Assembly: GCA_051362555.1 (NCBI GenBank)
Contig: CM120649.1
Location: forward strand, 18,862,567-18,926,566
Reading direction: 5' to 3'
Source of the DNA: Lingula anatina
Lineage: Eukaryota > Animalia > Brachiopoda
Length of the DNA stretch: 64,000 nt
A model generated the notes under the pieces. The model saw only the letters and a list, made by a program, of their open reading frames with translations, made no database searches and was not told where the DNA came from. Below, one piece after another: positions 25,444 to 60,650 of the stretch. Both the position numbers and the translations under genes were made by a program. Position 1 is the stretch's first letter. Each line of letters starts with the position of its first letter.

Positions 25444-25488
<45 letters not shown>

Positions 25489-31287: not shown

Positions 31288-32604
31288 TTACATGTGCATC
31301 ACATAGAACTGGGTATAATCAGTTGGACTTATTGTCAAATTTTTAAATACAACATGGAGCGGCAGGGCTAAGCTGAGCTTTTTGTCGTTTCCAAAAGGAA
31401 TATCCCCTCCAACAATCATTGCTAAGGCTTGCCTATTCCTTACATCTTCATGTCTGGTTGTTATAATGGATCCACTATCGCCTGCTTTCGAGAAAGCATT
31501 GTCACTGCCGTCTGCCTCAAAGGCCATAAAGGTGAATGGTCCATGCAATATGTCTTGCTCTCCAAAACCATGAAGTTTCATTTTAGTACGAAATTTTGCA
31601 TTAAATAATTTTCCAAATGTTGTCTTTGTCCCAGCTCCAGACTTTTGTACTTCGAGACCATGCTCAGTGAAGACACGTATATTGCATGGGATCAATTCGT
31701 GGACAAGAGCTTCATTTGTTATTTTAACACAAGTAACATCAACAAAGTACGAACTATTGTCCACGTCGGACCACTCTTTATACGTACTTGAATGGACTTC
31801 TCCAACTATTTTAGGTGATTCATTTTCTATACAAAATACATGTAATGGTGACTCGGTTTCAGATACACGTGCACTCAAAAGCACATCCAGACAATGGCAA
31901 CACGTGATACCATAGCATTCCCTTCCAAAACCAAAACATAAAAATCCTCCCATGGTGCCTGACCTTGGAGAAGTCACCTCTGCATACCCTTGTGCGTGAA
32001 GCTTCATTAATCCGTCTTGGCCCTCAGGTAGCTCATATAACTCAAAATTTAAACTACCCCTTTTCAGTTTCCCAAGTTCTCTTTCCACTTCATTTTTCTT
32101 ACCGTAAAGAACATTTGCATGCGCAATGTTGTCTACGTCGTCATACCAATAGCTGCTTACATCAGGACATCTGAAATAAAACAGCGAGCTTTTATCCGTC
32201 TGCACATTACACATGTTTATACTTTTTTGACACTGACAGAATAGAAATTTACTTATTTTATTAACACTCAGCGTAATAGGAAACTGAAAAAAGAAACACA
32301 GAGTTATAGGGTTTGGTAACAAGTAAATGAAAGGTGAGTCTAACGTGTCTAGGTATTTTGTGACATCAGTGGGAATGTCAAGTGTTGGTTCCGATTTCAT
32401 TCCCATGAGGGTCTTGACTGATGCAACTGGGGGTTCCGATTTCATTTCCATGAGGGTCTTGACTGATGCAACTGGGGGTTCCGATTTCATTTCCATGAGG
32501 GTCTTGACTGATGCAACTGGGGGTTCCGATTTCATTTCCATGAGGGTCTTGACTGATGCAACTGCCCCCTGGGCATCGGTAGCACTGATCTGATTTTGTT
32601 CTCC
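31288..32604 (-). CDS. Terminal exons (32604-32345 and 32170-31288) encoding a 15-aa repeat region and a Nal1/Ssy5-like trypsin-fold serine protease
   Basis: Motifs GTMGGF...YGITCCHCL (His), FVDVTCVKI (Asp), VQKSGAGTKTTFG, FSKAGDSGSII (Ser), ALAMIVGG and LALPL. There is no signal peptide or IVGG activation N-terminus. A phase-2 GT-AG intron at 32344-32171 happens to be open in frame, which is why the ORF track merges the two exons. Confidence 0.8.
   Translation of the reverse strand, partial: GEQNQISATDAQGAVASVKTLMEMKSEPPVASVKTLMEMKSEPPVASVKTLMEMKSEPPVASVKTLMGMKSEPTLDIPTDVTKYLDTLDSPFIYLLPNPITLCFFFQFPITLSVNKISKFLFCQCQKSINMCNVQTDKSSLFYFRCPDVSSYWYDDVDNIAHANVLYGKKNEVERELGKLKRGSLNFELYELPEGQDGLMKLHAQGYAEVTSPRSGTMGGFLCFGFGRECYGITCCHCLDVLLSARVSETESPLHVFCIENESPKIVGEVHSSTYKEWSDVDNSSYFVDVTCVKITNEALVHELIPCNIRVFTEHGLEVQKSGAGTKTTFGKLFNAKFRTKMKLHGFGEQDILHGPFTFMAFEADGSDNAFSKAGDSGSIITTRHEDVRNRQALAMIVGGDIPFGNDKKLSLALPLHVVFKNLTISPTDYTQFYVMHM
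32387..32564. repeat. 45-bp coding minisatellite, ~4 units (KTLMEMKSEPPVASV on the - strand)
   Basis: ggttccgatttcatttccatgagggtcttgactgatgcaactggg is repeated almost perfectly. Confidence 0.95.
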
Positions 32605-34135
32605 CTAATAAACGAATATAAGTTTATTTATATGATAGTATAGGGGTATAATGTTTATAATCTAGAACACAAGAACGCATCTAAAAATAATAAGTACTGG
32701 TACATTATCATATACTTGTATCTATATAGGAATCATGTTGTTGGTTCCTCGGCTGTTTACAGGGACTTTTGAGGCAATAGTTACATGCAGTATACATGTA
32801 GAAGGAAGCCATTCATCTGGTTATTGGATGTGTATTTTCAGTTATTTTGATAAATTGATTGGATGGATTTTCTTTCATTAGTTTTATTCTGTTACGTGCC
32901 AAAGTGTGTTTGTTCGCTAAAATTATATTTTGTGTATCTTCCAATCTACAGCGCTTAAGCGTTTGTTTCATGTATACTGGCCACGCATCCTCAACAGCAT
33001 CATCTCACAGCTGCTTGTCCTGTTGTAAGCAAACGGTAGGGTGTCCATCCTACCACGATATTGTTAGTGAAAATCAAAATGGCAGCAGATGGTAGAAAGA
33101 GCAGCATGATCAGTATATTTCCGGTATAGAAGTAATTAGTCTAACTGAAACCATTTAGAGCTTTAATTTGTCTATTGAATCTAGACCTGATATTTCGTTA
33201 GCCATGATCCTATTATCTGATTGTTTGACATTCGACTAATGCTTGGTGAGCCACTTTGCTACTCCCATGGACCCCATAGTGGAACGATTTCATTTTACTT
33301 TTTGTTATTATTTGAGAAAAAGAATTGCATTCTATCAGGTTAGATCAAATAGCATAAATATTAGTGATTCAAATCAACTATATTTTTCATTGGTGTTTAA
33401 TTGCATGTTTATGGAAACAGAAGTCTATATTGTGATTGAGTTTTAAAACTCTGCAAGTCATAAGTCATATCAATAGAAATAGCAAGGGCCGCTAAAAACG
33501 GTATGGAAAAGACAGGAAAAGATATGGTAAGTTATGTTTTTTTCAAAAGAGACAGACCTTTAAGGAGCATCACATATAAACAACTTCTACTAGTTTCCTA
33601 TATGACTAAAAAAAGTCGACCTGCCAAGGAACAAACTGAGCAAATCACTCGATCAGCCATAAAAGAGCTTTAGATTGTTCCTTTCTTTAAATTGTTGGTC
33701 AGAAATTAAATCTTCTTATCTAGCCTACTTTTCTGCCCCATTTATAGCATAGAAAGCTAGCAGAAAATCCGTTCAAACATCATTTTTCAGGTAATATTAA
33801 GCAATGTCTTTTGGTTATTCTCTTAGTTGTACTATACTTTATGCTGGCATCTTGTTTTGTTTTTTTTTTTTTTTTTTTTTTTTTTTTGGCAAAAATGACT
33901 TCACGTTCATCTAAAAATGAAATATACATACCTTTCAGTAAAACAATTACGCTGTAGGCAAAGCATTCATCAAAATAAATTAGATTGGTTAGCTAGGTGA
34001 TACAAAAAAAATTGAAAAAATGTTTGTCAAAGTTCGTCTACAGTTAACCAGCTGTCAGTTATCTCTGATAATTGAGTCGTTTGCCCTTAATTTTTAATAA
34101 AATCGTTATGGATGGTTATGTACCTCATCGCTCTT

Positions 34136-34166
<31 letters not shown>

Positions 34167-35432
34167 CACACACAAACACACACATATGAAAATTCGTGCA
34201 CATTTCGGCTGTATTAGCTCTCAAATGCAGCTCGAATGTAGTTGGAAAACTAGGAATAACGATAATGCTGTCAGAATGCAGTCTGACTATTTAGAATACA
34301 CTTCAAATGGCGTACGAGTTTAGTTCAATTGCTGGCTGAAATATGATTTCGGCAGCCATCGAGATGCATTCGAGTTGCATTCCGACTCATTTTAGCAGGA
34401 TTTGAAGTGTCTTGCCCTTTCAGTTCTCCCTCGAACGACATTCTTGCTCATTCCACCTCTAATGTGACGGGGCCTTCGGAGAGACAATTCTTTGTAAGTT
34501 CCTAGATATTCGAAGTGCATTCTAAACTTTATGAGTGCATTCCAAAAATTTTTACCCATGCTTGTGGCCGGCCCGAATATTTTGCTCATGCTCAAAATTT
34601 TCGAATTGCATTCCAAGCGGAGAAATATCGATTGGCATGGTAATTGTATTTTAACTGCACTATGAGTGCATTCTAAATATTCTTAGGGCATTCCAACAGC
34701 ATTCGAAACATTCTGATTGCTTTCGAGGGAAAACTGAAAGACACTTGTAGACACTTGTAGTTGGAAGTTGTTATCTGCGTTCGTTTCATACTGTTGTTTT
34801 AAAACTAAACAGAATCTTCCTGGCGAGCTTCATCGAAAGAAAGAACCTACGCGTTATAAAAGATAATCTAAAGCGGTAATGGTGTTGTGGAGGTGTAGCC
34901 GTGGACAACATGGGTCGGGACTAAAACCATGCGTACCGCCAGCGCTCACGCTGGTGGCACTATTAGCATTAACCCCAAAGGATCTGTAAGCCACATTAGA
35001 TAGAAACAAAGTCTCTTACTTACCTTACTGCTTATTGAAGGTGGGATTGGTACAGGTATATCTGAAATTTAATTATATTGTTTTAGTCGGAGCATAAGAT
35101 CCAATTATTTTTATAAAATTTCAACAAGCTATAACCCAAATCAAAGGCTGGTATTTCTATTGCCGTGAACGTGATAAGTCAATGATGAAAAAATGTCTGG
35201 GTGAAGGGCAAGGCAGTCCCAATTAAAAAAAAATGGTCACAGTTGAGTTTGGGTAGGTAAATTTTATGCCAAATGGGTTTCAAACTTTCATCAAATAAAC
35301 CTTCCTTGTTTCTCTTACAATTTAGGTTTATGAGATTCGACGTTATGATTCGTCTACGGATTGAAATCACTTTCTGATCTGAAGAAATCTTTTCGACAGA
35401 TAACTTCCACGTGCGTTAAAACTTTATACAAC

Positions 35433-35483
<51 letters not shown>

Positions 35484-35949
35484 TAACAGTTTTCCTGTAA
35501 ACTTCAGCCAGGTGTATCCTTTCCAAAACCAACAAGGAAAGTAAAGATGTGTCAAGTTGTTCTTGCATTGTATATGAAATTTGTGGATTACCTTGTCCAA
35601 TATTGCCAGCCTCCATCTCCTATACAGATTTAAGAGAGAAATGACCTCTGTAGTCAATAGAGTAATTAATACGGTTACCGTTGAGGACTGGATGTTACCA
35701 TAAGTTCCAAGATTAAAACGCGCGAGAGGTCTGGCGAGTGTGATGCTAAAAGAGGGATGCTCTTCTATCCAAAGTGTAGCTCTAACTGCATTCACATGAA
35801 AGTACATTGTTACAAGGGTAACCATACGTTAAATTTTACTATTACATATAAGAACTAGGACACCTATCATTGTGTAAACTTGGGATGTGAGAAGTAGAAT
35901 ATTGACATACCTATGTCACCTTTGTGTCACCATTAATATACTCAAACAC

Positions 35950-38900
35950 CTACAATATTTTCATATGCGGCTTCGGAGATGCATTCATTTTTATAGAGTA
36001 GTTCGGCAAAGGGGGTGTTTTTGACCTGCCTTGTTGCCAGAAGATTGAGATGTTCCATGATAACCATTTTGAGGGTTAGGCAACATCCAAACCATACCAG
36101 CACGTGTTAAGCCTGGGTCACACTGCGCTTGCAACCTTTTAGCAACCTCTTTACAACCTAAGTCGCAAGGAGGTTGCCATAGGTTTTAAAGTGGTCGCAT
36201 AAGGTTGTTAACAGGTCGCATGCAATCGTTGACACATGAAGGCCATTTTTTGTGCACCGACAACCAGTGCGACTAAAGATGAAAATTATCGGTATCCTAA
36301 AGGTTGCCTATCGGTCTCTTCTTGGTTGTCAGTAGGTTGCTATAACCAGTAGCATACCAATTGTAACTGCACGGTCGATTGACGGTATTTAGTCGACTGG
36401 TCGCTTACAAGTTTTTTACCAGTCGCAAGTAGTCGGCAGCAGGTCGTTAGAAGATTGCAGTTGTAACTGCACGGTCGATTGACGGCCTTTAGTATCTTGG
36501 TCGCTAACAGGTTTTTTACCGATCGCAGGCGTTCGAAAATATGTCGCAGGAAGGTTGCAAGCGACTGCAATAAAATAAGCGTAGGATGGTGGTCTATCTG
36601 GGCAAGAACTTTTTTCATAATTTGTTATGTAAGCCTTCTGAATATCAAGGTCATATATTATAATATTTTAGAAAAAGAAAACATAAATTGCATTTGTTGG
36701 CAATATATATATATATATACCAATAACTGAGTTGCCAAGGCTTTCATGTACCAGGTATTTCACACTTACGAAACCAAAAAAAAAAAAAAAAAAGGTGATG
36801 ATAAAAGCAATGTACGTTTTTTTGACGCTACGTTTATTTATCTTTTAGCGAAAATCATAGGTAAAATGCCGAAAACCTCAATTACATATCGCTGTATGTT
36901 ATTTAAAATTTGCAAAGCCATATTATCAGAGTAAACAGTGAAACAAATACAACAATGCAGAGAAAACGGAAAGTAAAAGCAATTTAATCAGCAAGGTATA
37001 ACTGCTATTTAATATCATAATTTCAACATCAAAATTATCCACTAATAATTGAACAAATCGTAAAATGTGTCCAATAGACTTAAATAAAAATAGTTTCAAC
37101 ACAAACAATTTAACATCTTCCCAGTGCTTGGTATCCTCACTACAAGGATGAGAGTGTAAAAAGTACACGATGCGCATGACTTGTCACGATTTAATTACGT
37201 TGTATTGTAAGTGGCAAACGCCTAGGATAAAAAGACAAAGGGTAAACCACACATTCGGTTGCAAATCAGTTGCAAAGCAGTCGGCGACCTGTTAGCAACC
37301 GGTTGGATACCACAAGTAGGTTTTTCGGTCGCCAGGAGGTTAGCGGTGCTGCACCGAAAACCAGCGCAACCGGATATTAACCCAGCGTTCATTTGGAAAC
37401 CACTTTGCGAGTTGTTGCAACCGGTCGCCGACCTTTTTGCAACCGGTGACAGTTGCAAGTCGCAAAGACGTTTTTTGTTCAGTGTGACCGTAACTGCACA
37501 GGCCTTGCGACCTCAAAGAGACCAAGTATTTGAACAAGAAAATATTAAAGAGTATTATGAGATTAATAAGGATTAAAACGTTTGCAAGTTTATGTTTTTA
37601 TTGCAGCACTGGTTTCGTTAGGTAAGGGTGTAGTCTTTTCAAAAGTTCACAAAACATTGTTAATTCTATTTTTAGGAAGGAAAGGAAAACTTCCTGATTT
37701 TCAAGTCGAAGTTCTTTCATCAAATGTTTGTAATCGCCTTACAAGGGGCGTCTTGCAATCCACGGGTTCACCCAGTATTTTCGAGTTTTTTTACTCGTTT
37801 TACTTCTTAGGTAAACAAAGTCAATGATTATAGCAGTCCCTTCTTTTTGAAAAGAAGTCGTTTTACTACAACATTTTGTCTTTTGAGAGGTGAATTTATG
37901 GGAAAGCAGCTACTGTCACAAGTTGGCAACATATATGTTCTGAGCGACCTTGCTGCTACCAGTTGACAAGCGATTGCTACAGTCCTGCAACCGGTTTTCG
38001 GACACCGAGTGGTTGCAGACAGGTTGTTTATCGCTCGGCGAACAGTGTGCGACTGGTAACCTATAACTTGAAGATGGTCTATAAGAGGTTGCAGATACCA
38101 TACTGCAACCTTGTTGCAACCGATTTGCGACTGCTTGCCGATCAAAATTGGCCACAGCTTCTTAATTAGCTTGCAAAGTGATCGCAAGCGACCGCCAGAT
38201 TTTGTGGTTGCAAAAAGGTTGCAAAAAGGTCGCAAGCGCAGTGTGACCCGGCCTTTAGGTAAGGTCAAACGAGTGAAACAATTAACACTTGAGAGAAAAG
38301 AGAATGTTCACACGCCATCTTCGTAGGAAACACTTTATAGCATCTAGGAATTAGATTGCACCATTTCAAAAGAATATAGCAAACAGTACAATGATACTGT
38401 TCTCAGATGAAAACAGATTCAGCGTTGTCAGAAGTGATGGACCCTTTGGGATTTTGGAAAACAGCCGGTAAGAAATATGCTCCCAATTGTTCTGCCCCTG
38501 GTCGATAGGACGCACCCCAATTAAGTCATGCATGGGGTTGTATTGGTTACTTTTGTGTTGGCGAGCTGGAGGTGGTCAACGGGAACCTGTACACAAAGAT
38601 ATGCAGCCAAGTAATGGCAAGGGACTTCAGTAATTCTGTCGAGAATATTTTAGGGACAATGACCACCCATTTTTGGTTCAGCATGATAATGCTACTCCAC
38701 AAACAGCCAATGCAACAGTAGGTTGGTTTTATGCGAACCACAACTGAACCCCGATGTCCAGCTTAACCCCAAGATCAGAACCTCATTAAGAACGTGTGGA
38801 ATATCCTTGGAAATGGATAACTATGGGAAACAAATATGCTCATACTACATTTGCATCGTATGTGGAATACCATCACACGACAGACATTACAGAACTATAT

Positions 38901-39030
38901 CACTTTTTGCGTTGCATTAAGGATGGCTATTTTTAGTAGGAAAGAATATAACAGAAAAACGGAAATGTTAATCCATCCTTGGATGTCATCAAGATCGGTT
39001 GATGAACCTTGAAACCACATAACACTTAAG
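35950..39030 (+). mobile_element. Fossil Tc1/mariner transposase gene, split by a nested Harbinger-like element
   Basis: HTH-like LVARRLRCSMITILRV at ~36030-36080. After 38257 come ILFSDENRFSV, WGCIGYFCVGELEVVNGNL, FLVQHDNATPQTA and QDQNLIKNVWNIL, corresponding to the Tc1 FSDE, QxDNA and PDLNPIENxW motifs. It has stops and frameshifts, and the boundaries are approximate. Confidence 0.7.
36110..38254. mobile_element. 2.1-kb non-autonomous PIF/Harbinger-like element
   Basis: TIR agcctgggtcacactgcgcttgcaacc / ggtcgcaagcgcagtgtgacccggcct, with a TTA target duplication at 36107-36109 and 38255-38257. Many subterminal GTTGCA/TGCAAC motifs, and a further TIR-like end at ~37480. Confidence 0.85.
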
Positions 39031-39590
39031 AATTCCACAGTATCCTCCCACTATTAAAAGAAAAAAACGATATTTAAAATAATTTAATAAAAATATACGA
39101 CACATAAGGTCTATAGGTATAAGAATGTAAGCTAATGAAAAAAAACGGTTATATTTTGCATTAACCACTAATTTTCATTACTTTTAGCTTACGCTGCATT
39201 TTTGTGTGTCACTTAGATATTTGTGTAGTATTTACGTTTGGATTTGAATTTCTAATGGATTTTAGAATAACGCAGCAATAGATTATGATCAACGTTTCAA
39301 TTAGTATTCCGCCTCCTGATAGACCAAGCGCAGCTTCAGACGCCATGCCACTGAAGACGTTTTGATGGGTTTAACTGACCGAGTTGACAACAGGGTGCTT
39401 GATATATATATATATATATACATATAATACACATACGTATGGGAAATATCTGCGTTTTAATAACTATTTTTGCATATGTTTCGTTTTGTTTTGTAGCTCG
39501 TACTTTGGTAATTCAGAGAAAGACTGTTCGTACATGTGGCTGTTACAAACTGAAAAGGATCGCTTTTCGTTTCTTTACTTATACTAGTAA

Positions 39591-41895
39591 TGCCCCTATT
39601 TCACACAGATCACGAATCCCACGAATGGCCATGAATTGACAAATTTCACGATTCGTGTTTGAATCGTAATCAGTTCGTGAAGTTCTTAACAGATTCGTAT
39701 ATATTCGTAGTCATTTCTTGCACTTCTTGACCAACAGGAATGGGTGGCAAAAACTTTGATGCCCCTATTTCACACAGACCACGAATCCCACGAATCGCCA
39801 GGAATTGAAAATTTGGTTGAATCGTAATCAGTTCGTGAAGTTCTTAACAGATTCGTATATAATCACAACTATGTCTCTTTTTGCTGATGACTCAAAGATG
39901 CAAAGATTAATTAGTTCTTTGGCTGATTGTTTGGCCCTCCAGGAGGATCTTGAGAGGGTAGTAGGTGGTGTAATAGGTGGGGAATGAAATTGAATGCAAA
40001 AAAATGTATGCTGTTAAGTGTCACGCGGAAGGTCAATCCAACTGTATTTTATTATAACATCTTTGGACATGTATTGATAAAGGTACATGACGTAAGGGAT
40101 TTAGGAGTTACCGTTAGCAGTGAGTTGACTTTTAATTCACTTATAAATAACTTTGTTAAGAGTGCAAATCAGACATGGGCAACTATTAGGCGAGTGTTTG
40201 ACAGAAATAGGAACCCAAGGTTAATGCAGCCTCTTTTTGATTCGTTAGTACGTTCAAAGCTTGAGTTTAATTCTGTATCTTGGGATCACATTACAAAAGA
40301 AAATTTAATAAAACTAGAAAGAGTGCAGCGAACTGCCACAAGACATATTCTGGGTAACCAAATGAATTATAAAGACAGACTGGTTGCTTTAAACTTGCTG
40401 CCTTTAGCTTATAGAAGAGAAATTTTAGACGTTACCTTCCTGCATAGTTGTTTTATTGGCAGGGCTGACCTTGATCATACGAAGTATTTGTATTTTAGAG
40501 AAAGATGGGGAGATCGTTTTATCATCCACAGTGCCAACTTCTGTAGAACCGAAACGTTTTGCCGGTCTTTTTTCAATCGCGTTGTTCCCATCTGGAACGC
40601 CCTTCCCATTTGCACACGTTCAGGGGTTGGCAGATCAATGTTTAGACGATCCGTCAGAGAGCACAATAGTACTCTTCTGGTGGAGCGCTTTGACCCCGCG
40701 AACGTTTGCACTTGGGTGGGTCGTTGCAGATGTACACATTGTCGTTTTTAGATGTACACATTGTCGTTTTTAGTACTAAAGTAGAGTTTTTATTTTTTAT
40801 CATTTGTATATCATTGGGGGTGTCCATTCATGGGTCATTGACCCCTTAGGCAAACCCTTTTGTGTACAATCTTATTTTGCATTATTTTAAAGTGACGTCG
40901 TACTATTAGTTGTAAGTTGTTTTATTATGCTCTTTTAAAAATCTTGTATATAATCTTGTACCCAATAAAGTCATTCAAATCAAAAATAATCGTAGTAAGT
41001 TCTTGCAATTCTTGATCAATCGGGAATTCGTGGCAAAAATTTTGAGCTGTTCATAGTTTTGGCCACGAACTCCCGATTCCAAAAAATTGTAATGACTTTC
41101 TGGACAATATTCGTGCGATTCCAGCCGAATCCCACGAATATTCGTAACACTATCGTAAGTACCTGTATCGTAAGTGAATCGTGAGCGTGTCGAATAAGAC
41201 CAGAAAATTGGCAAAATCTCACGCAAAATCCTAAAAGTTGGCAAAATCCTAAATGTTGTCAATTCCTGGCGATTCGTGGGATTCGTGGTCTGTGTGAAAT
41301 AGGGGCCTAATGCCCCTATTTCACACAGACCACGAATCCCACGAATGGCCATGAATTGACAAATTTCACGATTCGTGGTTGAATCGTAATCACTTCGTGA
41401 AGTTCTTAACAGAATCGGATATATTCGTATTTAGTTCTTGCACTTCTTGACCAACAGGAATTGGGGGCAAAAACTTTGATGCCCCTATTTCACACAGACC
41501 ACGAATCCCACGAATCGCCAGGAATTGAAAATTTCAGGATTCGTGGTTAAATCGTAATCAGGTCGTGAAGTACTTAACAGATTCGTATATAATCGTAGTC
41601 AGTTCTTGCAATTTTTGATCAATCGGGAATTCGTGCCCAAAATTTTGAGCTGTTCAAAGTTCTGGCCACGAACTCCCGATTCCAAAAAGTCGTAGTGAAT
41701 TTCTGGACAATATTCGCGCGATTTCAGCCGAATCCCACGAATATTCGTAACACTATCGCACCTGTATCGTAACTGAATCGTGAGCGTGTCAAATTAGACC
41801 AGAAAATTGGCAAAATCTCACGAATCCTCACGAATCCTGAAATTTGTCAATTCCTGGCGATTCGTTGGATTCGTGGTCTGTGTGAAATAGGGGCC
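39591..41895. mobile_element. Head-to-tail dimer of a PIF/Harbinger-like MITE (39591-41307 and 41311-41895)
   Basis: TIR (T/G)GCCCCTATTTCACACAGACCACGAATCCCACGAAT. The units are separated by one TAA, and each carries a duplicated left arm. The outer flanks are TAA (left) and TTA (right). Confidence 0.9.
39865..40985 (+). mobile_element. 5'-truncated CR1-clade LINE (RT C-terminal half) inserted in the MITE
   Basis: SLFADDSK RT motif, then a frameshift, then MKLNAKKC...RDLGV...SLVRSKLEF...LERVQRTATR...SFFNRVVPIWNALP. AATAAA at ~40964. ATAATC is duplicated on both sides, and the empty site is visible in the second MITE unit. Confidence 0.9.
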
Positions 41896-42137
41896 TTAGG
41901 TGCACTTTTACGCTGTAAGGTACACCAGTTGCTATATTACCAATTGTGCGGTTTTCAACACTGGAACTGGGGAATTTTGTAGTGGCCTCGTCTCCTCGTC
42001 CGTACTTTATGTCATACCCACTGTCAATATTGCCTTCACTCGCTTTCCAAAACAGTGACATTGCTTTCACAGAGGTGTTTTCTTTGGTAACTTGCCCAGG
42101 ATCACATGGCTCTGGAAGTAAAACACGTGAAAGACTA
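41896..42137 (-). CDS. FN3 exon 3 of the ANK-TIR-FN3 gene, truncated by the MITE
   Basis: Phase-1 acceptor (exon starts at 42137 or 42111). Reads PCDPGQVTKENTSVKAMSLFWKASEGNIDSGYDIKY...IGNIATGVPYSVKVHL, then runs directly into the MITE TIR. Confidence 0.65.
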
Positions 42138-42339
42138 CTGTGATTTCAATAAAATGTTTGGCTCATTGCTGTCGCTTTCAAGTGGAATGCATGTATAATT
42201 TTAGCGTAAAATTCATGAGTTATTCTTCAAATTGGGTAGACATTTCCAGTCCAATTTAACAGCTCATATGCTTCCAAAAATTCAACAAAGTTACTTCATT
42301 ATATATCATTTAAAATAAGGGATGTGATAAAGCACTTAC

Positions 42340-42729
42340 GTGTCACCTGTGTACTTTGTTGTGGTACGCTAGGATAACCATTAGCTATCGCAAAAATTCG
42401 GATTTCATACTTTGTGTCAGGGAGAAGATTTTCTATATTGCACTCGTTTTGCACAGTTTCAATCTTATCATATCTAGCATCCAATATTTGGAATTCATCG
42501 TGATCAATTTCTTCTTGAGTTTGTGCCGATCCTGGCTCACTACTGTGAATTTCATATTGACGTCGTATCTGCTGCATGCCTGCACTGTCTTGACTGTTAA
42601 TGTCTGCATCTCGAACAATTCTGTACATTATGGCATAACTGTGAACAGCACCTGGAGCTGGCATCCAGCGCAAGTATAAACTATTTGTACTTGCTACGCT
42701 ATGTACAATGGTACCAGGCATTGGTGGTG
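42340..42729 (-). CDS. FN3 exon 2 (with a long acidic loop insertion)
   Basis: Phase 1-1, GT-AG. Reads APPMPG...NSLYLRWMPAPGAVHSYAIMYR...IENLLPDTKYEIRIFA, carrying the FN3 W...Y...L.P.T.Y signature. Confidence 0.85.
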
Positions 42730-42927
42730 CTGTAAGAATGAAAGTTTGGTTACGTGGAATTATATTCCATTTTATACCTTAAGGTGAATTAATTGTCATT
42801 TATTTTAATCTCACTTCTTTAAGTAATTCAGTGTATTAGCCAAGATTCCATTTTATCATGAATATGAATAAGGTAAAAGGTCGTGATATTTACCAAATAA
42901 AACAGATGAGAAAACAACCCCAGATAC

Positions 42928-43215
42928 CTGTATAAGCCACGCACGTGACAGCTTCACTTTTTTGTCCATTGTGTAAAATAGTTGAAATACTGCAGTTGTA
43001 TGCAGTCCCGGACTCTAATCCATATATTTCGGCAGTTCGTCCGCTGCACTCGACACTCAATAGATTGTGATGAGCTTCCTGGGCATAGTATGTTATTTCA
43101 AAGTGATCAATATTTTGACGTATTTGCAAGTCCCACTCCAGTTTAACTGACGTAAGTTGTCTTTTCTTGTTCGCCTGTGACCATGTCTGTTTGAAATATG
43201 TGGGTGCTGATGAAT
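42928..43215 (-). CDS. FN3 exon 1
   Basis: Phase 1-1, GT-AG. Reads TSVKLEW...IDHFEITY...AEIYGLESGTAYNCSIST...KSEAV. Confidence 0.85.
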
Positions 43216-44182
43216 CTGAAATTAATGACCAGATCATGATATTCGAATTAATAAACAGTCCTAACATGAAATAGGTAGAGCATGGCTTTACCAAAAAAAA
43301 AAAAAAATAATAATAAATAATAATAATAATAATAAATAAATAAATCTATAAAGTAACGCACCGCGTGTAAAAAAGCTTTTGATTTTTTGCATAAACGTAT
43401 AGCAGTATTTTTCTGTGGGGGAACTGAGTAAAGCAGCGTGTCACGGCATTGGAATGGCGCAAAACAGCCTTGGGTGCATCAAACAGATGTACATTGTCAG
43501 ACAGATTGTTGATTCGCATGGAACATTCTGCACAGTCTTATATACGTACGTCCATATCATGATTTGAATATCTAGATTGGAAGTTTTTCATTAATTGTGG
43601 TGAGCTGGCCAGCCAATAGGAGCGGTCAAGTCAATCATTTCAAGCCTTATTACCGGCAGCATAAGCCTTTCTATAAATTGCTCTGAACGAGTTACCAATA
43701 ATTGTAACATTTAGGAACATTTAGTAAGTGGCCTTCAATATTTATGGTTTTAAACATAATAAACACTCGCAATTGTGTAACAGGTTTGAAACGTCTTGTT
43801 AATTTTGTAGCCATTTTTACTTCTATGGCAATCACTGTGGGAATTAATATTTGAGGGTGTGCATGTTCTTAGTTTATATAAATGGTACACAATGGACAAC
43901 TTCATCGGTGTTTAGGGTTTTCTTAACCCTAAATTAAATATGGTACATGGGAAATTATGATTTAAGTTTTGGGCGGAATTCACTCTGGTACCAATACCAC
44001 ATTACTAGTAATCGGTGGAAACTTGAACCACGTCATATACAGACTGTTCTGTAAACCATCTGCCTCTAATTTACAGGAGGACCCCTCAGGAACAATTTAA
44101 TTTTGTTAGGTTGCAATGCCAGTCAACAGAAAACACTAGCAATCACATAATAGTGGAAACAAGAGACTGATCAAATAGCATC

Positions 44183-44481
44183 CCAGCAGGCATAGTGACG
44201 TTGGATCAGCCTTGAAAACAGGTTGATACAGTGAATTGCCGTTGATCTACCTAAATTCAACATAAAATCAGCGTTGATCCAGCCACGTCAAAACACCGTC
44301 ATAATGTGATGTTGACTCAACGTCGTATTTTGGTCCTTGACTTAACGTTGTTGTTTGGTCGTCGTGATGCAAGACATGGATTGTAATTTAAAATATTAAT
44401 TATTGAAAACGTGATACTTTGTTTATCAATACTGTAACTAACTTTATCATGATATTAAAGTGCCATATGTTTATAAGGAAA

Positions 44482-44546
<65 letters not shown>

Positions 44547-44965
44547 ATATATATATTTTTTTTTTAATTTTCTTATATAAATATGTATATAAGGATATAT
44601 ATATATATATATATATAACTAAACCTTGGAAATCCTAACTTAAAGGGCATACATACATATAAATCCTACATATATTTAGCCATCAAACATGTCCCACTGC
44701 TAAACACATCCAGGCTAAAAGGGTGTACCATGCTTAGGAGCTAAAAGTGTTAAAAAATCAGACAAAGCACGCACTTGGATATTTTTACAGTGTACGTTAT
44801 AATTGTGTACCTGTGTTTTGTACCAAAAATAAAAACATTTCAGGTCATTTTAATGACATTTCATGCAAGAATGTTGTCTAACAACTGGGGTTGATACAAT
44901 GTTGTTATCTGACGTTGATCCAACTTTCAAATTCAACGTATATCCAACGTCTTATCAACGTTATG
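44183..44965. mobile_element. Non-autonomous DNA transposon lacking its right terminus
   Basis: Starts cccagcaggcatagtgacgttg, which matches the reverse complement of the terminus at 28137. It has an internal (TA)n, and 44620-44965 is shared with 27730-28090. Confidence 0.6.
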
Positions 44966-45274
44966 GTTATGGCTGTGACTACTTGCCATTCCTTTACAGA
45001 TAATAATTTGAAAAATACGGGTATAGAGGTCCAAATAGCACTGAATTGTTGTTTTATGACTAGGTATCAGGTATGTATTTTTGTTTACTTTAGGGGTCTT
45101 ACTGATCAATTTATATGGAACCTGATGCCACGATGACATTGAAAAGATTAATAAAGTTATAAAAACACAATTTAATTTTGTTTTCATTTATCAGTAAGAC
45201 AAATAGAAAAAAAGGGAATGAAAAAAATATAAGATGTTAATTCTCTATATAACAAGCATTGAAACCACAAATAC

Positions 45275-45675
45275 CTTTAATGATATGTAAAAGCTTTGAC
45301 ATCAACGCCTCATCATCAAATCGGATTTGTTTCATCCCTCTGAGTTCTGCAGGGATTTCCTCAGCTGACATATTCATTACAACTGGAATGAGGACATCCC
45401 TTTTCCACTCTTTGGCTTTTTGCATGACATACTGCAGCTGTAGTTGACACCACTGACTTTGGACAAAACTCTTGGACAAGAATACTACAGTATGTTTGGA
45501 TGCCGTGATCGCCTCACAGATCGAATGGATTGCATATGTTCCAGGAATGAAGTCTTTGGCGTACCAACGTTGAACTCCGTGTTCCTTAAGCTGGTGTAGA
45601 ACTGGTTCTATCGCGGTCTCATCTTCGTCACTGCACGCAATGAACACGTCGTAGCGGTGTAGATCCAAAGGCAAA
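45275..45675 (-). CDS. TIR domain exon
   Basis: Phase 2-1, GT-AG. Box-1 YDVFIACSDED, BB loop KDFIPG, then AITASKHTVVFLSKSFVQSQWC, LIPVV and IPAELR. Confidence 0.9.
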
Positions 45676-45902
45676 CTGTGAATACACGCATTTTGTGACT
45701 GAGAATGTTTATATACATCTACACACACATACCTACATGTACATGCAAACAAACACTGGCGCATCTGCGTATGCGAAACAAGGGTGCTAACGTTTTTGTT
45801 GCATTGAATATCATATGTATTTGTTTTCTTTAATTAAAATTTCGAATAAATTCCAGTTAACATTACTTTAAAAAGCAAAACTAACTTCCTTTTTTCACTC
45901 AC

Positions 45903-46044
45903 CTAGCATTCTTTTGATTACGGATGGTTGAACATGAGTATATGTTACTAGCAGTGACCAGGGTTTTCAAAAATTCTTGAAATTCATTGGGGGCCTTGTG
46001 TGAAATTTTTGTCACCACCTTTGCATAATAGTCCACTGCCGCCT
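45903..46044 (-). CDS. Linker exon preceding the TIR
   Basis: Phase 1-2, matching both neighbours. Reads AAVDYYAKVVTKISHKAPNEFQEFLKTLVTASNIYSCSTIRNQKNA. Confidence 0.7.
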
Positions 46045-47694
46045 CTGTAAGGGGAATGTTTAAAATATGTATCCCGGCGATCAAACTGTACAAAGGAAAA
46101 AGATAAGTCATAGGACAGTTTGCGATTCAGTAAAATAAGCAGTTGCCCCTGGGCAGATGCTGATCAAATTTTGGTCTTGGGTCAGTTGCCGATTATCCTT
46201 GGACAGATGACGATCAGCATATGTCCTAAGACATTAGCTATTTGTTCTAGGACAATAACTGTGCCATCAGTGTGTTTTCCTCAACAACTAAAGATATGAA
46301 ATGGTGATGGATTTTATAATGTCATCTTTTCTATTAAATTGATTTGTGTCATCTTTAATAAAAGAAACCATGGTCTGTCATTCATCTTAATTTGGGTACA
46401 GCAATAGCCAACATTAATATTTTTGTACTGCATACATCTGATGAGTATTTCAAAGAATGAAAATTGATATGTTTCAAATTCCTGTAATGACCAAATCAGC
46501 AAAATGCTTTTTTTCTCCATATTTACTAGATGTTTTACATTTTTATTCAACACCAAGACCTTTCTAAAGGAAAATTTATCTTGGAATTATCTTCAAACGC
46601 TTATGACCTTTATCTATTATCTTTAATGTATCTTATTAGGTCATTCCATATCAACTCATCCAGCGATGGTACCCTCCATCAAGAAACTTGCTGGTTTTCA
46701 CATTGTACTCTGACAGACTTGGTCACAATTGAATTACATGTTCAGGTGAAGATGAACAGCTAATTACCTCAGTCTTGACGATGATTTTTAGTCCCTATCG
46801 CCCCCTCCCTACAGGTTGGGTTTGAGAATGTCAACGGGTTAATCAAATGTCTGAATCTATCGTAAATGAAAACTTTCTGACTAGCAAGACTGAGATCCAA
46901 TGAAACTATTTTCACGATATTTCAGTTATGGTTTCAAAGTTAACACTCCAAAGTTGGGACCAACATTTCAGGAATCCAACTATCACATTGTAATTTATCT
47001 GACATATATAAAATGTATTAATTTTTACTTTGAAAAACCTTGTGATATTTTCAAATTGAAGGACACCCCGTTTTTGGTATCTTAATTTTCTCAACGACTT
47101 CAAATGGACATGCATTTGTTTTATTTCATTTAAAAGAGGGCGGGGCTTGAACTTAAAAATGAAAGTGTTAAAGCAATTTGTATTTTTGGCGACAAAAATT
47201 ATAATACATTATAAGAAAATGTGTGACATTTCTTTAAAAAATACATGCATAAGGCCTGCTGCAAATACGGCACCAAGGACTTGGTTTTTGAACATTTTTC
47301 TAGAAAGTATGTTACCTATGTTTTACCAAACCATAAGTGAACCACTACGACAAATATTGGAACACGATACAGAAATTATAAATTATATCTCAAACATAAC
47401 CTGTTCGTTATCAGTACATATCGCGGGTGTAGTACCATTTGGACTTCTTATGCACATGATAAATGGCACATACATGTACATTATGAAAATGCACGTAGGT
47501 GTAAATTTGAGACAGCCAAGTGTTTTTGGTCTACCTTTATACACATGTTATAAAAATTGATTACACTTACATTTTAATAGGTCTTTTATAAATGGTATAC
47601 AACGATGTATATGTTTGGTTAGTTGCTGTAACGATATGAAATGACTGATAACTCTGAAGTACATGTATCAGAAAAAAAATTGAGAATCACTTAC

Positions 47695-47911
47695 TTGAAA
47701 GTCGTGGAAGGTTTACAGCCTGTAGTTTGGTTCCAAAGTCTCTTATATTTGTACACTTGGTCTTGTTGGACCATTCTTTTAAGTCCTGTATTTTTTGTAA
47801 TTGGGAGACGAGGGAAAAGTCCGAGCTCATGTTGGTCGGTTTAATGGTGGTATATTCATCAGAAGCTAATATTTCAGCAAGGTGCTCAAAAGTCCTGCTT
47901 TGAATATATTC
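47695..47911 (-). CDS. Exon encoding a helical, weakly death-fold-like region
   Basis: Phase 0-1, open, with a ttttacag acceptor and gtaagt donor. Reads EYIQSRTFEHLAEILASDEYTTIKPTNMSSDFSLVSQLQKIQDLKEWSNKTKCTNIRDFGTKLQAVNLPRLS. The pattern LA..L...L.EW...L..V.L..L resembles death domains; the domain call is an inference. Confidence 0.65.
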
Positions 47912-48129
47912 CTGTAAAATGGCATCACACTAATAACTTTATAGAAAGCGGTACACATATATACATAATGCATATCATTAATTGGCACATGGTGTTTGTG
48001 TGGTAAAATGCATTGCTTAAGTGTTTATTGAAAAAAATTGATATATGATAATTGCCCAAAAATGTACACATGGCCTTTAAATGTCTGCATCTTGGGCTAC
48101 ATAGAGCATCCTTGAATCCCTGGATAAAA

Positions 48130-48348
48130 TAGAGCAAAGGGTAAGGCAAGGATGTGTCATTTCGCCCACCTTTTCAACCGGCCTCTACTCTGAATCCATA
48201 ATGACCAATGCTTACAAGGTGGAAAACGTGAAACAATTTATCTATCTTGGTGCAATATTCACTGACAAGTTCGATGACACTACAGAAATAAAATAATGAA
48301 TTGCAACCGTGGAGGGTGCCACAGTCTCTCTAACTAAGGTCTGGAGGG
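48130..48348 (+). mobile_element. Internally deleted RTE-clade LINE fragment
   Basis: Reads VRQGCVISPT..., LYSESIM and VENVKQFIYLGAIFT...EIK**IA...LTKVWR. Confidence 0.75.
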
Positions 48349-54232: not shown

Positions 54233-54322
54233 CTGTATATCTGGCATTTCTAAACGTCTCAGCAGTTCTCCTATGGCGATGTGCTTCTTCTTTTCTGCCA
54301 CCATTCTTGGCGTCTTTCCACA
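54233..54322 (-). CDS. C-capping ankyrin exon
   Basis: Phase 0-0. Reads CGKTPRMVAEKKKHIAIGELLRRLEMPDIQ. Confidence 0.75.
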
Positions 54323-55120: not shown

Positions 55121-55219
55121 CTTATCCTGTATATTGGTATTCGCCCCGTGTTGGAGGAGAAGCTGGACACATGCCGTATGGCCGCCATCAGCAGCCCAGT
55201 GAAGTGGTGCCCATCCAGA
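55121..55219 (-). CDS. Single-ankyrin-repeat exon (99 bp)
   Basis: [33 protein letters not shown], with AG/GT boundaries. Confidence 0.9.
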
Positions 55220-55377: not shown

Positions 55378-55473
55378 CTACATTAAATCGGTATCTGCCC
55401 CGTGTTGGAGGAGAAGATGGACACATTCCTTGCGGCCGTTACAGGCAGCCCAGTGCAATGGTGTGAAATAACC
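55378..55473 (-). pseudogene. Ankyrin exon copy that has lost its splice donor
   Basis: Reads [31 protein letters not shown]. Compared with sister exons, the last codons plus GTGA are deleted, so the frame reads into a TAG. Confidence 0.7.
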
Positions 55474-55766: not shown

Positions 55767-55865
55767 CTCGTCCTGTATTTTGGTATCCGCCCCGTGTTGA
55801 AGGAGAAGCTGGACACATGCCGTATGGCCGTCACGGGCAGCCCAGTGAAGTGGTGTGCTCCCGTC
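55767..55865 (-). CDS. Single-ankyrin-repeat exon (99 bp)
   Basis: [33 protein letters not shown]. Confidence 0.9.
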
Positions 55866-56668
55866 CTGTGGATGTGTACAAACAAACCGATTTAACAGAG
55901 ATAATTCATGCCAAAGTAGCATATTTAATTCCTTTAAAGGTTATTGTAACCCTTTATTATCATCCAGATACCGAAAATGTTTTTTCTTCTATCTAATTAA
56001 TCAACAATGCCCCTTTCTTTGTGCTGACTAAAACAATAAAAATAAGCTCGAAAATATTTTAATTTTATATTTCATCCCTGCAATGTATAGGCATAAGCAA
56101 CTCAAAGCTTGATTTGTCAATTTAACGCCTTTTTATTTTGGGGGGAGATTACAATCGATAAGTGGCGTATTAGTAATTTCATCCCTATAAAGTTTTATCT
56201 CCAATATCGACATTTTGGTTTTAAAGTTTTGTTATGGAGTTATGAGCTCCTTATTACACTGAGGAAAGACATTGTTTTGCTTTATTAATGATAAAATCTG
56301 AACCAAGACTTTAAAGAAAAACCTCTGGCAAGGTTTTGGAGTTCTAAATGCTGTCATTCAATCGGCATTGAAAGAGTGATCGCGGGTACTAAAGGTAAAA
56401 GAGAAATTTGAGACACCAATTTTTCTGTTTTTTTTTTGTTTTTGCCCCAAAATCGCAATTATAACGTCACCCATAAGACATACCCAAATGTTAATCAATT
56501 TAGTCGCCGAACACTGAAGATTTATCTATTAACCAAAAAAATGTATGTAAGGCAGTAAATAATGGGTTTTGGGCAAAGGGTGACAATATCCGTAACATGG
56601 AGAAAATTGGAGCTTCCCGTAAATGTGCATTTAACCATATGTACGTATTCACACTATTCTACACTCGC

Positions 56669-56773
56669 CTCATCCTGTATAGGCCTATTAGTATCCGCCC
56701 CGTGTTGGAGGAGAAGCCGGACGCATTCTGTATGGCATTTACCTGCAGCCAAGTGAAGTGGTGTCCACCCAAA
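56669..56773 (-). CDS. Single-ankyrin-repeat exon (105 bp, GC donor)
   Basis: [35 protein letters not shown], with donor GAG|GCGAGT and an in-frame 6-bp insertion. Confidence 0.7.
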
Positions 56774-56983
56774 CTGCAGGTTTGTAGAAACGATGTGATT
56801 TTTTTTTTGTTATCATAACTATTTAATATATTTTTATTCGTGTTTCACTTTTAAATGCTCGACTAATATTAAAATTTCTCAAAATTTTTGTACACAATCT
56901 ATGTTTATGGGACCTTGGGGCTGGAGGGTCGATACATACTATTAATATTACGGAAAATGTGGCTCACTGCATTACTGTATATA

Positions 56984-58643
56984 CAGACTTGACATTTAAT
57001 ATGGAATATTTTTTTCCAAATAATTTTTCATCAGTTTTTTCCTATTTTGCTGACTGATAAATGAAAATAAGGCTTAAAATTGGGTTTTAATAACTTTTAA
57101 TTATCCTTTTGATGTCATTGTGTCTTCAGTTCATTAATGGAATTCGCCAGAGAAGCAAACAAAAACACATTGCCTATTCTATGTCATACGACAACAATTA
57201 AAAGAGATATTTTGGATCTCCACATTTTCCAAATTATTTTCTGTAAAAGAGTTACACGCCTCACAAAGAACCCCCATGTCAGTGTCTAGTCACAGTAACG
57301 GTCGCTGTTACGCTTGACCTCTTCTGTCTGCTACCAGGGCTCTCAAGGGGCAAGGCATTCCTTGGGTTAGGTTTTTAGAGTTAAATCTGGAATAACATTC
57401 CAGGCATCGGTCAAAATCTGTCCAATTTGGTCCAGTTTTGTTGTAGGACATGTAGGCCATTGATTCGGCGAGTAATGGCCTACCCACATATTGTCTATGT
57501 GGTTCAAATGTGGCGATTTTGATTACCAAGGTAGCTGCTCATTCCCTTGGTTCTGTAAGTAATCTGCTTTTAAAAGTGCTCTGTGTGTACCGGCAATTTC
57601 ACCGTGCAACCTAAAATTGTTCCTAAGGTGCCCCCTGTCAAATGATTGTCAAGTGGTTCCCAGATTATTCCTTTATTTGATCTGGTTCAGGTTTTCGTGG
57701 ATGACCATCATTGGTGTTTTGGCACCAATGTGGTATCCGCTCCAATTACCGACGCTGTTAATGAACTTAGTCACTTTAAACGCGGCACACGCTTAGTTGT
57801 TGGCCTCTTCTGGATGTCTGTAAATTCTGTTTTGACAAGTTGAGAGGCATAGGTGAAAACTGACCTCAATAAAGAAAGCCACGACTTTTCAGTGTTCAAC
57901 TCAGAAACAGTCAAGGTCCCCAATTCATTAGAGAAACATACAGCGATGTTTTGCTGTTTACAGTGGGTTCCCCCGAGGTCGTCTGGTATTCTAACCAGCT
58001 AAAACCAGTTTGGTGTTCTCTAAGGGCCTTGAAAAATGCGTTTTGGTGGCAATTTACCCCTCATTCTGAACGGACTGGGTGGTTTTTGTTTAGTTGCAAC
58101 AACATATCCCGACAGACAGTACGTCCTGTACCCTGGTGGTAAGATTTCAATACATTGGGTGTGGTCTCTGTGTAGGTGCATCAGTCTGGACATTACTCTA
58201 TTAAACTGTGCGGACCGTTTCGTTTGGCGCAATTATCTGTCTGACAATGCCTGGCTTTTTCGAGCCATTCTGCCACAGATTAACAAATTTGCGGAGCAGT
58301 GCATAGCTCATTTTACACCTTGCAAAACTGACCACTTGCATGCCAAATTTCAAATTCATCTATGCAGTAGTTACCGACATATGGATACTTTTTTGGAAGA
58401 ACCATGCTTTGCCAAAGCCAAGCTTTGACCTGCCCAAAGGAGCACTACCCAATTAAATCACTGCATATTACATAATGCAGCAGCGCAACAAACCTGGAAT
58501 TCAGTGAATTGGAAGTGACACACCTGACTACACACTTCTCCATTCACATATCTTATATGAGATCTGAGTTTTTGAAAAAAGGATGCATTTTTACCAGGGC
58601 ATACCTTCTAAACTGAAATATTCCATATTAAATGTCAAGTCTG
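56984..58643 (-). mobile_element. Full-length but decayed Tc1/mariner element (1.66 kb)
   Basis: TIR CAGACTTGACATTTAATATGGAATATTT at both ends with TA flanks. Degenerate transposase on the - strand: GAKTPMMVIHENLN, THRALLKADYLQNQG, LPW*SKSPHLNHIDNMW, DAWNVIP, NLTQGMP..LRALVADRRG. Confidence 0.85.
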
Positions 58644-58804
58644 TATATTTACAAACAACATGATTAAACTGAGATAATTTATGTTGACAAATAAGTATAT
58701 TTTCTTGCAGGTTTTGAAAAAAATTTAGTCTTGAATTAAATCAAAGTAGGGGATCAGAGAGGCGATACCGCCTCCGGGTATCGTACCACCAGCTGGAGTA
58801 AGCG

Positions 58805-59697
58805 CATTTGTATGGACAGGGACACCACCTCCACTTTTGTGCTTGACAAGCTCTACAAAAAGCAGTAAATGAAGGTTCTCAATATTTTTGTTGGATATTA
58901 CCATTAAAAACAAAACCATAGGGAAAAGTAAAAGAAAAGTAAAAAGTTTTTAAAAAAATGGCAAAGGTCAGTTCATGATGAAAAGTAGGTCAAAGGTCAA
59001 TGTGAGGGTCACAGACTTCCTATTCAAGTTCAATAGATCTGTGGGTATATCTTTGCTGGTTTTTGAGATATAACGGATAGAAAAGTTCCAAAGTTCAGCC
59101 CATGGTGAAAAGTAGGTCAATTGCCAAACTAAGGTTTAAACTAAATATTAAGGTCATATTTAGATAGCCAGTATATGACTTTCCATTCAAGTTCGATAGT
59201 AACTCTGGGCGTATCTCTATCAAATTTGGAGATATACCTGAAAGGGACTAAAATGTTCCAAAGTTCAGTTCATGGTGAAAAGTAGATCAAATGTAAATTT
59301 GAAGGCCACAGTTAGATTGTCAGTGTATTATTTCCTATTCAACTTCAACAGTAGCTATGGCCCTATCTCTTCCAGTTTTAAAATGTTGCAATTTTAGAGT
59401 GACAGTTATGTGCCATACATTTCATACAGAAGAACTTAATTGAAATAAAGAAAATGTCATTTTGGTTGATATTCATGAAATGGGAGGTGCTCAGAAATTC
59501 TAGGTGTTCGAATTTCATGAAATAATGTCATTTTTGACCATTTTTGACCATTTTTTTGGGCATATTACCGTATTGCACATTTTGCTTTTACCACCACAAT
59601 GTACTTTTTGATACAGTGTAACTCGTAAACCGTATGGAAAACAAAAAACGGACACCACCTTCAGTGTTGGGCTTGACATGCTCTATCAAAAGCAAAA
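58805..59697. repeat. Repeat element with ~50-bp terminal direct repeats and three internal subrepeats (Helentron-like/satellite-associated)
   Basis: ggacaccacct...gcttgaca.gctcta..aaaagca at ~58820 and ~59650. The internal unit catggtgaaaagtaggtcaa...ttcctattcaagttcaatag occurs three times. Confidence 0.55.
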
Positions 59698-59702
59698 TAA
59701 AA

Positions 59703-60093
59703 AAACAAGAGGTCTCTAGCATTAGCGGTTCCAGAATTAGAGACAGTTTTCAGTTTCGGCATCTACATGTAGTGGCCGCTGCTCCCGTGAAAATGCACCT
59801 GTTGACCCCCCCCAAAACTCACGGAGATGAAAGAGGACCCTAATGGTAACGCCTGCCAATAATATTATAGGTGGGGTCTGTGCAGTTTCTGAATATCGGC
59901 GCATCGACGAAGCCCACATTTTACGTGGATTGAGTTGAGATTATACGTGACCTAAAACCAAAAGATGGGTACGAAGGCCCTTGTAGTCTAGGAGGAGAAG
60001 CGGTAACAGTGACGTGGCGCCGGAGCCGACGGAACGGATGGGTCGGTACTAAAACCATGTGTACCGCCAGCGTCTACGCTGGAGGTACAATAA
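59703..60093 (+). mobile_element. Helentron/HINE-like element
   Basis: Begins aaacaagagg and ends with the hairpin gtaccgccagcg-tcta-cgctggaggtac. Its 3' end is shared with ~34870-34960. Confidence 0.5.
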
Positions 60094-60212
60094 TCAATTA
60101 TCATATCTTGTTAATTTGGCATAGTTTCTTGTAGTAAATGACGGAATTTGTAGCTTAGTTTTAAAACCTGTACATGTAACCATATTGCTTTGTCAAAATA
60201 TTCTACACTCAC

Positions 60213-60311
60213 CGCAGTCTGTTTATTGATATCCGCACCATGTTGGAGGAGAAGCTGGACACTTTGTGTGTTGCCAAAGGAAGCAGCATAGTGAAGTGGT
60301 GTCCATTCAGA
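60213..60311 (-). CDS. Single-ankyrin-repeat exon (99 bp)
   Basis: [33 protein letters not shown]. Confidence 0.9.
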
Positions 60312-60551
60312 CTGTGAATGTACATGTATAAAATAAGTGAAATTTAATATGATAATTCATGTTGTCAAAATATGTTTATTTCTATACAGGCTTTGAAATT
60401 ATCACCAATTAACTCAAACATAACTGATCATCATATATTGTACATTTTGCACAATTTCTTCAAATGAATTGCTGAAAGTGCAGTGTTGCGTACATGTACA
60501 TGTAAGTGTGCATGTAACCATGCTGATGTACTTAAACTATTCTACATTCAC

Positions 60552-60650
60552 CTCAGTTTGTATGCTGATATCCGCCCGGTGTTGGAGGAGAAGCTGGACA
60601 CAATGTGTGTGGCTGTTACGGGCAGCCCAGTGAAGTGGCGTGCTCCCGTC
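60552..60650 (-). CDS. Single-ankyrin-repeat exon (99 bp); the most 5' coding exon recognised
   Basis: [33 protein letters not shown]. Confidence 0.9.

Follow-up and report, generated by a model that had tools for sequence, protein, structure and literature searches.

A candidate ankyrin-TIR-FN3 gene in possible continuity with a NAL1-like protease in the brachiopod Lingula anatina

The window analysed here is a stretch of 64,000 nucleotides from the genome of the brachiopod Lingula anatina (assembly GCA_051362555.1, contig CM120649.1, positions 18,862,567 to 18,926,566 of the forward strand; ~36% GC), numbered from its first letter. Its minus strand holds a row of exons that encode ankyrin repeats, a helical region, a TIR domain and FN3 domains, and further down two exons that end in a predicted NAL1-like serine protease. 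An original prediction, made from the letters of the sequence, had proposed that twelve exons on this strand splice in one frame, and this was borne out: from 60650 to 41897 the acceptors are AG, the phases fit (0-0 six times, then 0-1, 1-2, 2-1, 1-1, 1-1 and 1-) and the joined exons give 748 residues with no stop, in the order five ankyrin repeats, cap, helical domain, TIR and three FN3 domains. The ankyrin, TIR and FN3 calls were all recovered by Pfam with the E-values given below, and the reported absence of a transmembrane segment agreed with the Kyte-Doolittle mean over 19 residues, which peaks at 1.1 in the joined exons (a start exon of the gene was not found as far as the end of the window).

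The ankyrin exons are each of phase 0-0 and are located at 60552-60650, 60213-60311, 56669-56773 (105 nt, with a GC donor), 55767-55865 and 55121-55219, followed by the ankyrin C-cap exon (54233-54322, also 0-0). The fourth, the one ankyrin exon tested, matched Pfam Ank with E = 3.3e-12, and the cap exon aligned by tblastn to three L. anatina relatives with E between 6e-8 and 5e-6. A dead ankyrin exon at 55380-55473 on the same strand has retained its acceptor and lost its donor, after which an in-frame stop follows.

The array is continued by a helical exon (47695-47911, phase 0-1, 53-57% identical to the same three relatives), a helical linker exon (45903-46044, phase 1-2) and the TIR exon (45275-45675, phase 2-1). 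The first two are joined by four RNA reads of run X9, which connect 46042 to 47697. The TIR exon was matched by Pfam TIR_2 with E = 7e-21 (75.4 bits against a cut-off of 28), and among 50 candidates it matched three L. anatina proteins at 69% identity. These uncharacterised proteins (XP_023932464.1, XP_013414964.1 and XP_013402582.1) resemble the window gene in running from ankyrin repeats through cap and helical region to TIR, with matches in exon-sized blocks, and differ from it in being 313-415 aa long, with a short tail and neither FN3 nor protease. They also keep a glutamate (3/3) where the window TIR has Gln (CAG, 45440-45438), at what we take to be the catalytic position from the motif WCxxEL.

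Two complete FN3 exons, both of phase 1-1, follow at 42928-43215 (Pfam fn3, 2e-7) and 42340-42729 (1.4e-9, with an insertion of ~45 residues). The third had been described as truncated by a miniature inverted-repeat transposable element (MITE), and in fact it is interrupted by an insertion: the piece before the MITEs lies at 41899-42111 (fn3, 3.9e-5), 39591-41895 is taken up by a tandem pair of MITE copies that bear terminal inverted repeats and are flanked by TAA / TAA / TTA, and the remaining 57 nt of the exon are found at 39534-39590 on the minus strand, ending in phase 1 in the same register as FN3 exons 1 and 2. The MITE pair is presumably of Tourist/PIF type, and reading through into it meets a stop at 41830. 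Exon shuffling is known to move symmetric phase-1 exons such as these FN3 exons. A profile search for relatives of the FN3 domains gave just two generic matches among 1655 candidates and no close one. A short open reading frame (ORF) between the TIR and the first FN3 exon (44096-43983, minus strand), which by eye resembled a decayed start of an FN3 domain, was not supported by tblastn with the exons. The same intron contains one copy (44606-44966) of a dispersed repeat, the other copy of which (87% identical) is located at 27718-28091.

The two downstream exons of the original prediction were placed at 32345-32604 (linker exon, phase 0-2, with three full copies and a partial fourth of a 45-nt tandem repeat) and 31288-32170 (terminal protease exon, 293 codons), both on the minus strand, and a candidate polyadenylation signal AATAAA is present at 31097-31102, 186 nt past the protease stop. 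The earlier assignment to Nal1/Ssy5-like trypsin-fold proteases was upheld by a profile search, an intact catalytic triad and structural comparison. The profile was built from 63 bacterial NAL1-like proteases (Nal1_C and phrog_20754 matches in sampled genomes), obtained from 68 ORFs with a G-x-S-G motif after leaving out two off-target and three duplicate sequences. Among 1209 ORFs of the window it matched the 32604 ORF alone (E = 3.5e-11), and the protease exon scored 40.0 bits, the best of 1000 shuffles reaching 11.5. The triad is in the order His-Asp-Ser with a GDSG motif, and its codons, His92 (31896-31894), Asp144 (31740-31738) and Ser232 (31476-31474), align to columns conserved in 62/63, 63/63 and 63/63 of the bacterial relatives, the Ser column being conserved by construction because the set was filtered for G-x-S-G.

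An AlphaFold2 model with the profile alignment had a mean predicted local distance difference test score (pLDDT) of 72.9 and a predicted TM-score of 0.70, with residues 1-18 and 37-68 below pLDDT 50; a single-sequence model reached a pLDDT of 33.8. All Foldseek and VIA matches of the model were PA-clan proteins, and the terminal exon is thus predicted from sequence and model to be a two-beta-barrel PA-clan serine protease. Rice NAL1 (NARROW LEAF 1) was the top Foldseek match (E = 2.7e-8, TM 0.50) and has the motifs GTxG, KxGxxT and GDSGS in common with the window protease. VIA aligned residues 2-290 to NAL1 without trimming and gave a tie, with Z scores of 15.7 for lytic protease L5, 15.3 for Deg1 and 15.1 for NAL1 (226 residues). 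The structural ranking leans to NAL1 because the alignment behind the model was chosen for NAL1 likeness. The Atlas comparison, which is independent of that alignment, gave a best score of 0.98 for a eukaryote cluster in which Mollusca are commonest, 0.96-0.97 for bacterial Nal1_C clusters and 0.91-0.92 for fungal clusters and Ssy5.

With respect to the filed NAL1 family (PF25819/PF25608) the protease lies outside, reaching 13 bits against the Nal1_C cut-off of 26.1. It is just 16-26% identical to the 63 bacterial proteases, none of which, like NAL1 itself, carries ANK, TIR or FN3, and Pfam gave no match to a NAL1_N (ATP-binding) domain ahead of it. Given the match to the custom profile, it is best described as NAL1-like without membership of the filed family. 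Fungal Ssy5 (peptidase S64, PF08192) belongs to the same clan and is likewise a cytosolic protease with a His-Asp-Ser triad (Pfam E = 0.02, Atlas 0.91), but the window protease scores 13.8 bits against the PF08192 cut-off of 23.6, and Ssy5 has a long fungal pro-domain and acts as a single-domain component of fungal amino-acid sensing, unlike the predicted multidomain protein of the window. Matches to S64 outside fungi are doubted in the part of PMC5567314 consulted.

Sequence searches gave no close relative of the protease and no homolog that combines it with a TIR domain. No relatives were found in genome contigs; phages and plasmids gave chance matches with E of 7-10, the plasmid one without a protease ORF. 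PADLOC and NCBIfam gave nothing, nor did the PDB by single sequence, and PHROG gave only a protease match at E = 0.017. In Bacillota the window protease found weak, non-catalytic matches in 2/301 genomes. Stand-alone NAL1-like proteases are frequent in the same sample of Bacillota (48/301 genomes at E ≤ 0.001; 0/14 control genomes). Among the Atlas matches listed no cluster carries ANK, TIR or FN3. At rank 17 (score 0.82, 122/256 features in common with the protease) stood an 888-aa mollusc cluster annotated with DUF4559 (48%) and HEPN_DZIP3 (32%), which is a lead only and hints that mollusc proteases of this type may occur in fusions with further conflict domains.

RNA evidence was taken from nine raw-read runs chosen by species label, of which six were compared, with 6-30% of each covered. 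Over 30700-48200 the reads are dominated by repeats, and exon depth is below ~1 outside repeat-containing bins. At 80% likeness, 54 reads matched 31150-33500 (26 in X7, 14 in X8, 14 in X9 and 0 in X5), of which 0 were at least 95% alike, 9 were at 90-95% and 45 lower, and there was hardly any match outside the two predicted exons. The joint 32169-32528 is present in three reads, and in five X8 reads the sequence continues past 32169 with a translation that fits, in register, the end of the linker exon, which indicates that paralogs of the window copy do splice the linker exon to the protease exon. By the joint 32169-32528 the paralog reads skip most of the 45-nt repeat tract (32379-32564), so the repeat is likely a recent expansion in the window copy. 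Among 37 differences between the protease exon and the paralog reads, 18 are silent and 19 replacing, as compared with 21% silent sites (P = 1.8e-4; the 37 come from 40 listed of 64 found, every difference was judged on its own, and a pair of them may be one indel shown as mismatches). At the Asp231 and Ser232 codons the differences are all silent. The NAL1-like protease family is multi-copy, expressed (paralogs ~80-95% identical) and constrained. Even without a fusion, a brachiopod has expressed and constrained multi-copy proteases of this kind, with look-alikes in molluscs and no close relative in the sequence searches made.

The FN3 exons and the protease exons are separated by 7 kb, between 39533 and 32605. 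The best candidate there for a 1-to-0 exon is one of 38 nt at 35024-35061 on the minus strand, proline/serine-rich and with a strong donor, and with the MITE pair omitted and this exon included, sixteen pieces join into 1159 residues in which the only stop is terminal. An alternative acceptor for the linker exon is located 4 nt downstream, at 32600 (phase 1). Since the third FN3 exon is symmetric, skipping it preserves the frame, whether by way of the 38-nt exon or of the acceptor at 32600, so the window copy is not necessarily dead; it is either dying from the MITE damage or producing a two-FN3 form by exon skipping. The 38-nt bridge is possible and unproven. The original prediction had regarded the FN3-protease link as broken and the fusion as not demonstrated. 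The latter stands, and the former is overstated in that the MITE is an insertion, the FN3 exon continues past it and a phase-compatible bridge exists. Because the frame can be carried through, the single protein that it had suggested is more plausible than it held.

All exons from ankyrin to protease are on the same strand with compatible phases, and a single transcript that runs from the TIR through FN3 to the protease is, by a modest measure, probable in our view. The coiled-coil-like last exon of the three relatives was not found in the window, so the window TIR exon needs another 3' partner, and the first FN3 exon, the phase of which fits, follows at a distance of 2 kb. Between these two exons AATAAA does not occur (2.8 expected; 61/1000 shuffles also had none). 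The last exon of these relatives shares PTY and LTS with the beginning of the first FN3 exon, a resemblance that was considered and rejected as evidence, being equalled by 269/1642 control starts locally and by 43/1642 when anchored.

Several results weigh against this continuity and against the function proposed below. The score of the 38-nt exon was matched or beaten in 34/200 simulations and in 38/110 control windows (the windows overlapped, some contained real exons, and the splice matrix had the donor of the linker exon entered 2 nt off), which places the bridge at chance level. Two AATAAA motifs lie between the third FN3 exon and the 38-nt exon, and the donor of that FN3 exon is weak (score 1.0, as compared with 5.6-11.1 for supported exons). 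At the low read depth over 30700-48200, none of the 15 joints listed (of 31) connects the TIR with FN3 or FN3 with the protease, and the comparison over 31150-33500 yielded no joint reaching upstream of 32604. Given that 0/54 reads were at least 95% alike, the window copy itself was not seen expressed. All three full-length relatives stop within ~35 residues past the TIR, without FN3 or protease, and, as noted, the similarity of their last exon to the first FN3 exon is not significant. A longer protein carrying the window protease was found neither among 2341 long candidates nor in 1.84 billion representatives, and the representative of the best Atlas cluster has 311 aa, which points to a stand-alone form in molluscs, either real or as an annotation. 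The label death-like given to the helical region in the original prediction was supported neither by Pfam, whether with the three relatives themselves or with an alignment of the region, nor by sequence matches in the PDB; what resemblance it has is presumably a C-terminal L-x-x-W ... L pattern, and a Death search of bacteria gave one weak match in 241 genomes.

The same observations bear on the strongest rival, that two neighbouring genes lie on this strand. One would encode the ankyrin repeats, the helical region and the TIR, and might or might not include the FN3 exons; the other would encode the protease, alone or together with FN3, and its first exon would be small, have escaped recognition or have been lost among transposons. 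The ending of all three relatives, whose gene models may be incomplete, soon past the TIR and the length of the mollusc representative are as such an arrangement would have it, and hand-made domain fusions in invertebrate genomes are, in the portion of PMC4967905 used, frequently prediction errors. The intervening 7 kb are mostly repeats, and ATG exons with usable donors of a kind expected by chance are many there (25 rows). None of these ATG exons stands out as a start before the protease exons, however, no polyadenylation signal follows the TIR, one does follow the protease stop, the relatives' own last exon is missing from the window and all phases suit one gene. We regard two genes as a distinct possibility, short of probable. 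The same interval contains an element at 36109-38255, bounded by terminal inverted repeats of 50 nt, whose coding fragments have decayed and of which the fragment tested had no Pfam match; we assume the element to be Harbinger-like.

If there is one gene, the following action may be proposed. The array with one exon per ankyrin repeat would bind a ligand, the TIR domain (without the catalytic Glu in the window copy) and the helical domain would self-associate as a scaffold, the FN3 domains and the repeat linker would serve as spacer, and clustering would bring the protease domains together and activate them, upon which a host target would be cut. Granted a single transcript, this sequence of ligand binding, scaffold clustering and protease activation appears reasonably probable to us, and one gene together with a cluster-activated cytosolic defence protein is put forward tentatively. 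The immune and clustering functions are suggested by analogy only. In animals, clustering of TIR and death domains switches on kinases and caspases.

Parts of the scheme have counterparts in known systems. According to the part of PMC12012508 consulted, rice NAL1 needs hexamer contacts for an ordered triad and activity, and it cuts FZP. The counter-invader systems in the examined part of Kaur et al. 2021 (PMC8195603) likewise combine a clustering adaptor, a repeat sensor and an enzymatic effector: death-like domains are fused to TIR or trypsin-like peptidases in bacteria, and expansions in invertebrates combine death-like domains, ankyrins and effectors. The trypsin effectors there are bacterial, whereas the invertebrate effectors are caspase, PNPase, HD, HEPN and others, and that part contains no ANK-TIR-FN3-trypsin protein. 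Bacterial anti-phage trypsin-like proteases, as far as given in the parts of 10.1101/2025.09.03.673762 and PMC12799240 used, are similar in that a sensor-tied protease activates an effector by cleavage, and differ in being encoded in prokaryotic operons with a nuclease partner, in contrast to the predicted single chain of the window locus. MyD88 and Toll-like receptor (TLR) adaptors have a helical domain followed by TIR (MyD88 being death plus TIR in the part of PMC7075850 consulted), but the window gene has an ankyrin array in front and FN3 and protease behind, and its helical region is only a putative death domain. The words trypsin, ankyrin, fibronectin and peptidase do not occur in the main text of that TIR survey.

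A further alternative keeps one gene and gives it another action, either an NAD-cleaving TIR in intact paralogs whose product or NAD-bound filament gates the protease, or a non-immune regulator. The glutamate of the three relatives would suit the former, and in the part used of bioRxiv 10.64898/2026.04.20.719644 animal TIRs, including one Lingula TLR TIR, make cyclic ADP-ribose in a Glu-dependent manner, with Glu-to-Gln abolishing activity; the cutting of FZP by NAL1 and the processing of a transcription factor by Ssy5 (PMC5567314, in part) would suit the latter. On the other hand, the relatives with Glu carry no protease and the fused copy has Gln, and a multi-copy family confined to one lineage, in which the ankyrin array varies, has the pattern of conflict systems described in PMC8195603 as far as consulted, and this alternative is considered unlikely. 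More improbable still is exon-shuffling debris, a dead locus of TIR-gene, FN3 and protease pieces that was never a working protein, for although the insertion of MITEs into an exon, the loss of one ankyrin exon, the GC donor of another, the Glu-to-Gln change, the missing start exon and the absence of protease reads at 95% likeness fit it, the exons are, MITE aside, all free of stops and frameshifts, including the 293 protease codons with the full triad, and silent changes are enriched among the differences from expressed paralogs.

In the literature as covered by titles and the beginnings of abstracts, an ANK-TIR-FN3-NAL1-type protease architecture is not described; the account of Lingula immunity by Gerdol et al. 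2018 may describe the ankyrin-TIR family. Shuffled TIR and ankyrin proteins are already known from marine invertebrates, and a NAL1-type protease as effector would be the new part. More speculatively, animals may have one-chain immune switches, built by exon shuffling, that couple sensing by ankyrins and scaffolding by a TIR domain to the activation of a NAL1-type protease, a class known from bacteria, plants and fungi, as a caspase-free counterpart of inflammasome logic. If this were true, TIR-coupled trypsin-fold proteases would be a new class of cytosolic effector, mirroring bacterial sensor-protease defence.

Other features of the window lie on either side of the locus. Upstream of the first ankyrin exon, two minus-strand ORF fragments at 63159-64000 had no significant Pfam match, and we take them to resemble the end of ORF2 of a long interspersed nuclear element (LINE). 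On the plus strand, a gene of three exons, the product of which is hydrophobic at its N-terminus, is present in three tandem copies, 60-75% identical, at 1-363, ~5800-7339 and ~13100-14530; the ends of these copies presumably resemble a single von Willebrand D domain, for which neither Pfam nor the PDB gave a match. Between these and the protease, also on the plus strand, is a tandem pair of small genes for cysteine-rich products that are hydrophobic at the N-terminus (~19875-21615 and ~24267-25645); their last exons matched Pfam Diedel above the cut-off (1.7e-7 and 1e-7). Such Diedel-like, immune-modulator-like genes adjoining the locus lend weak support to a role in defence.

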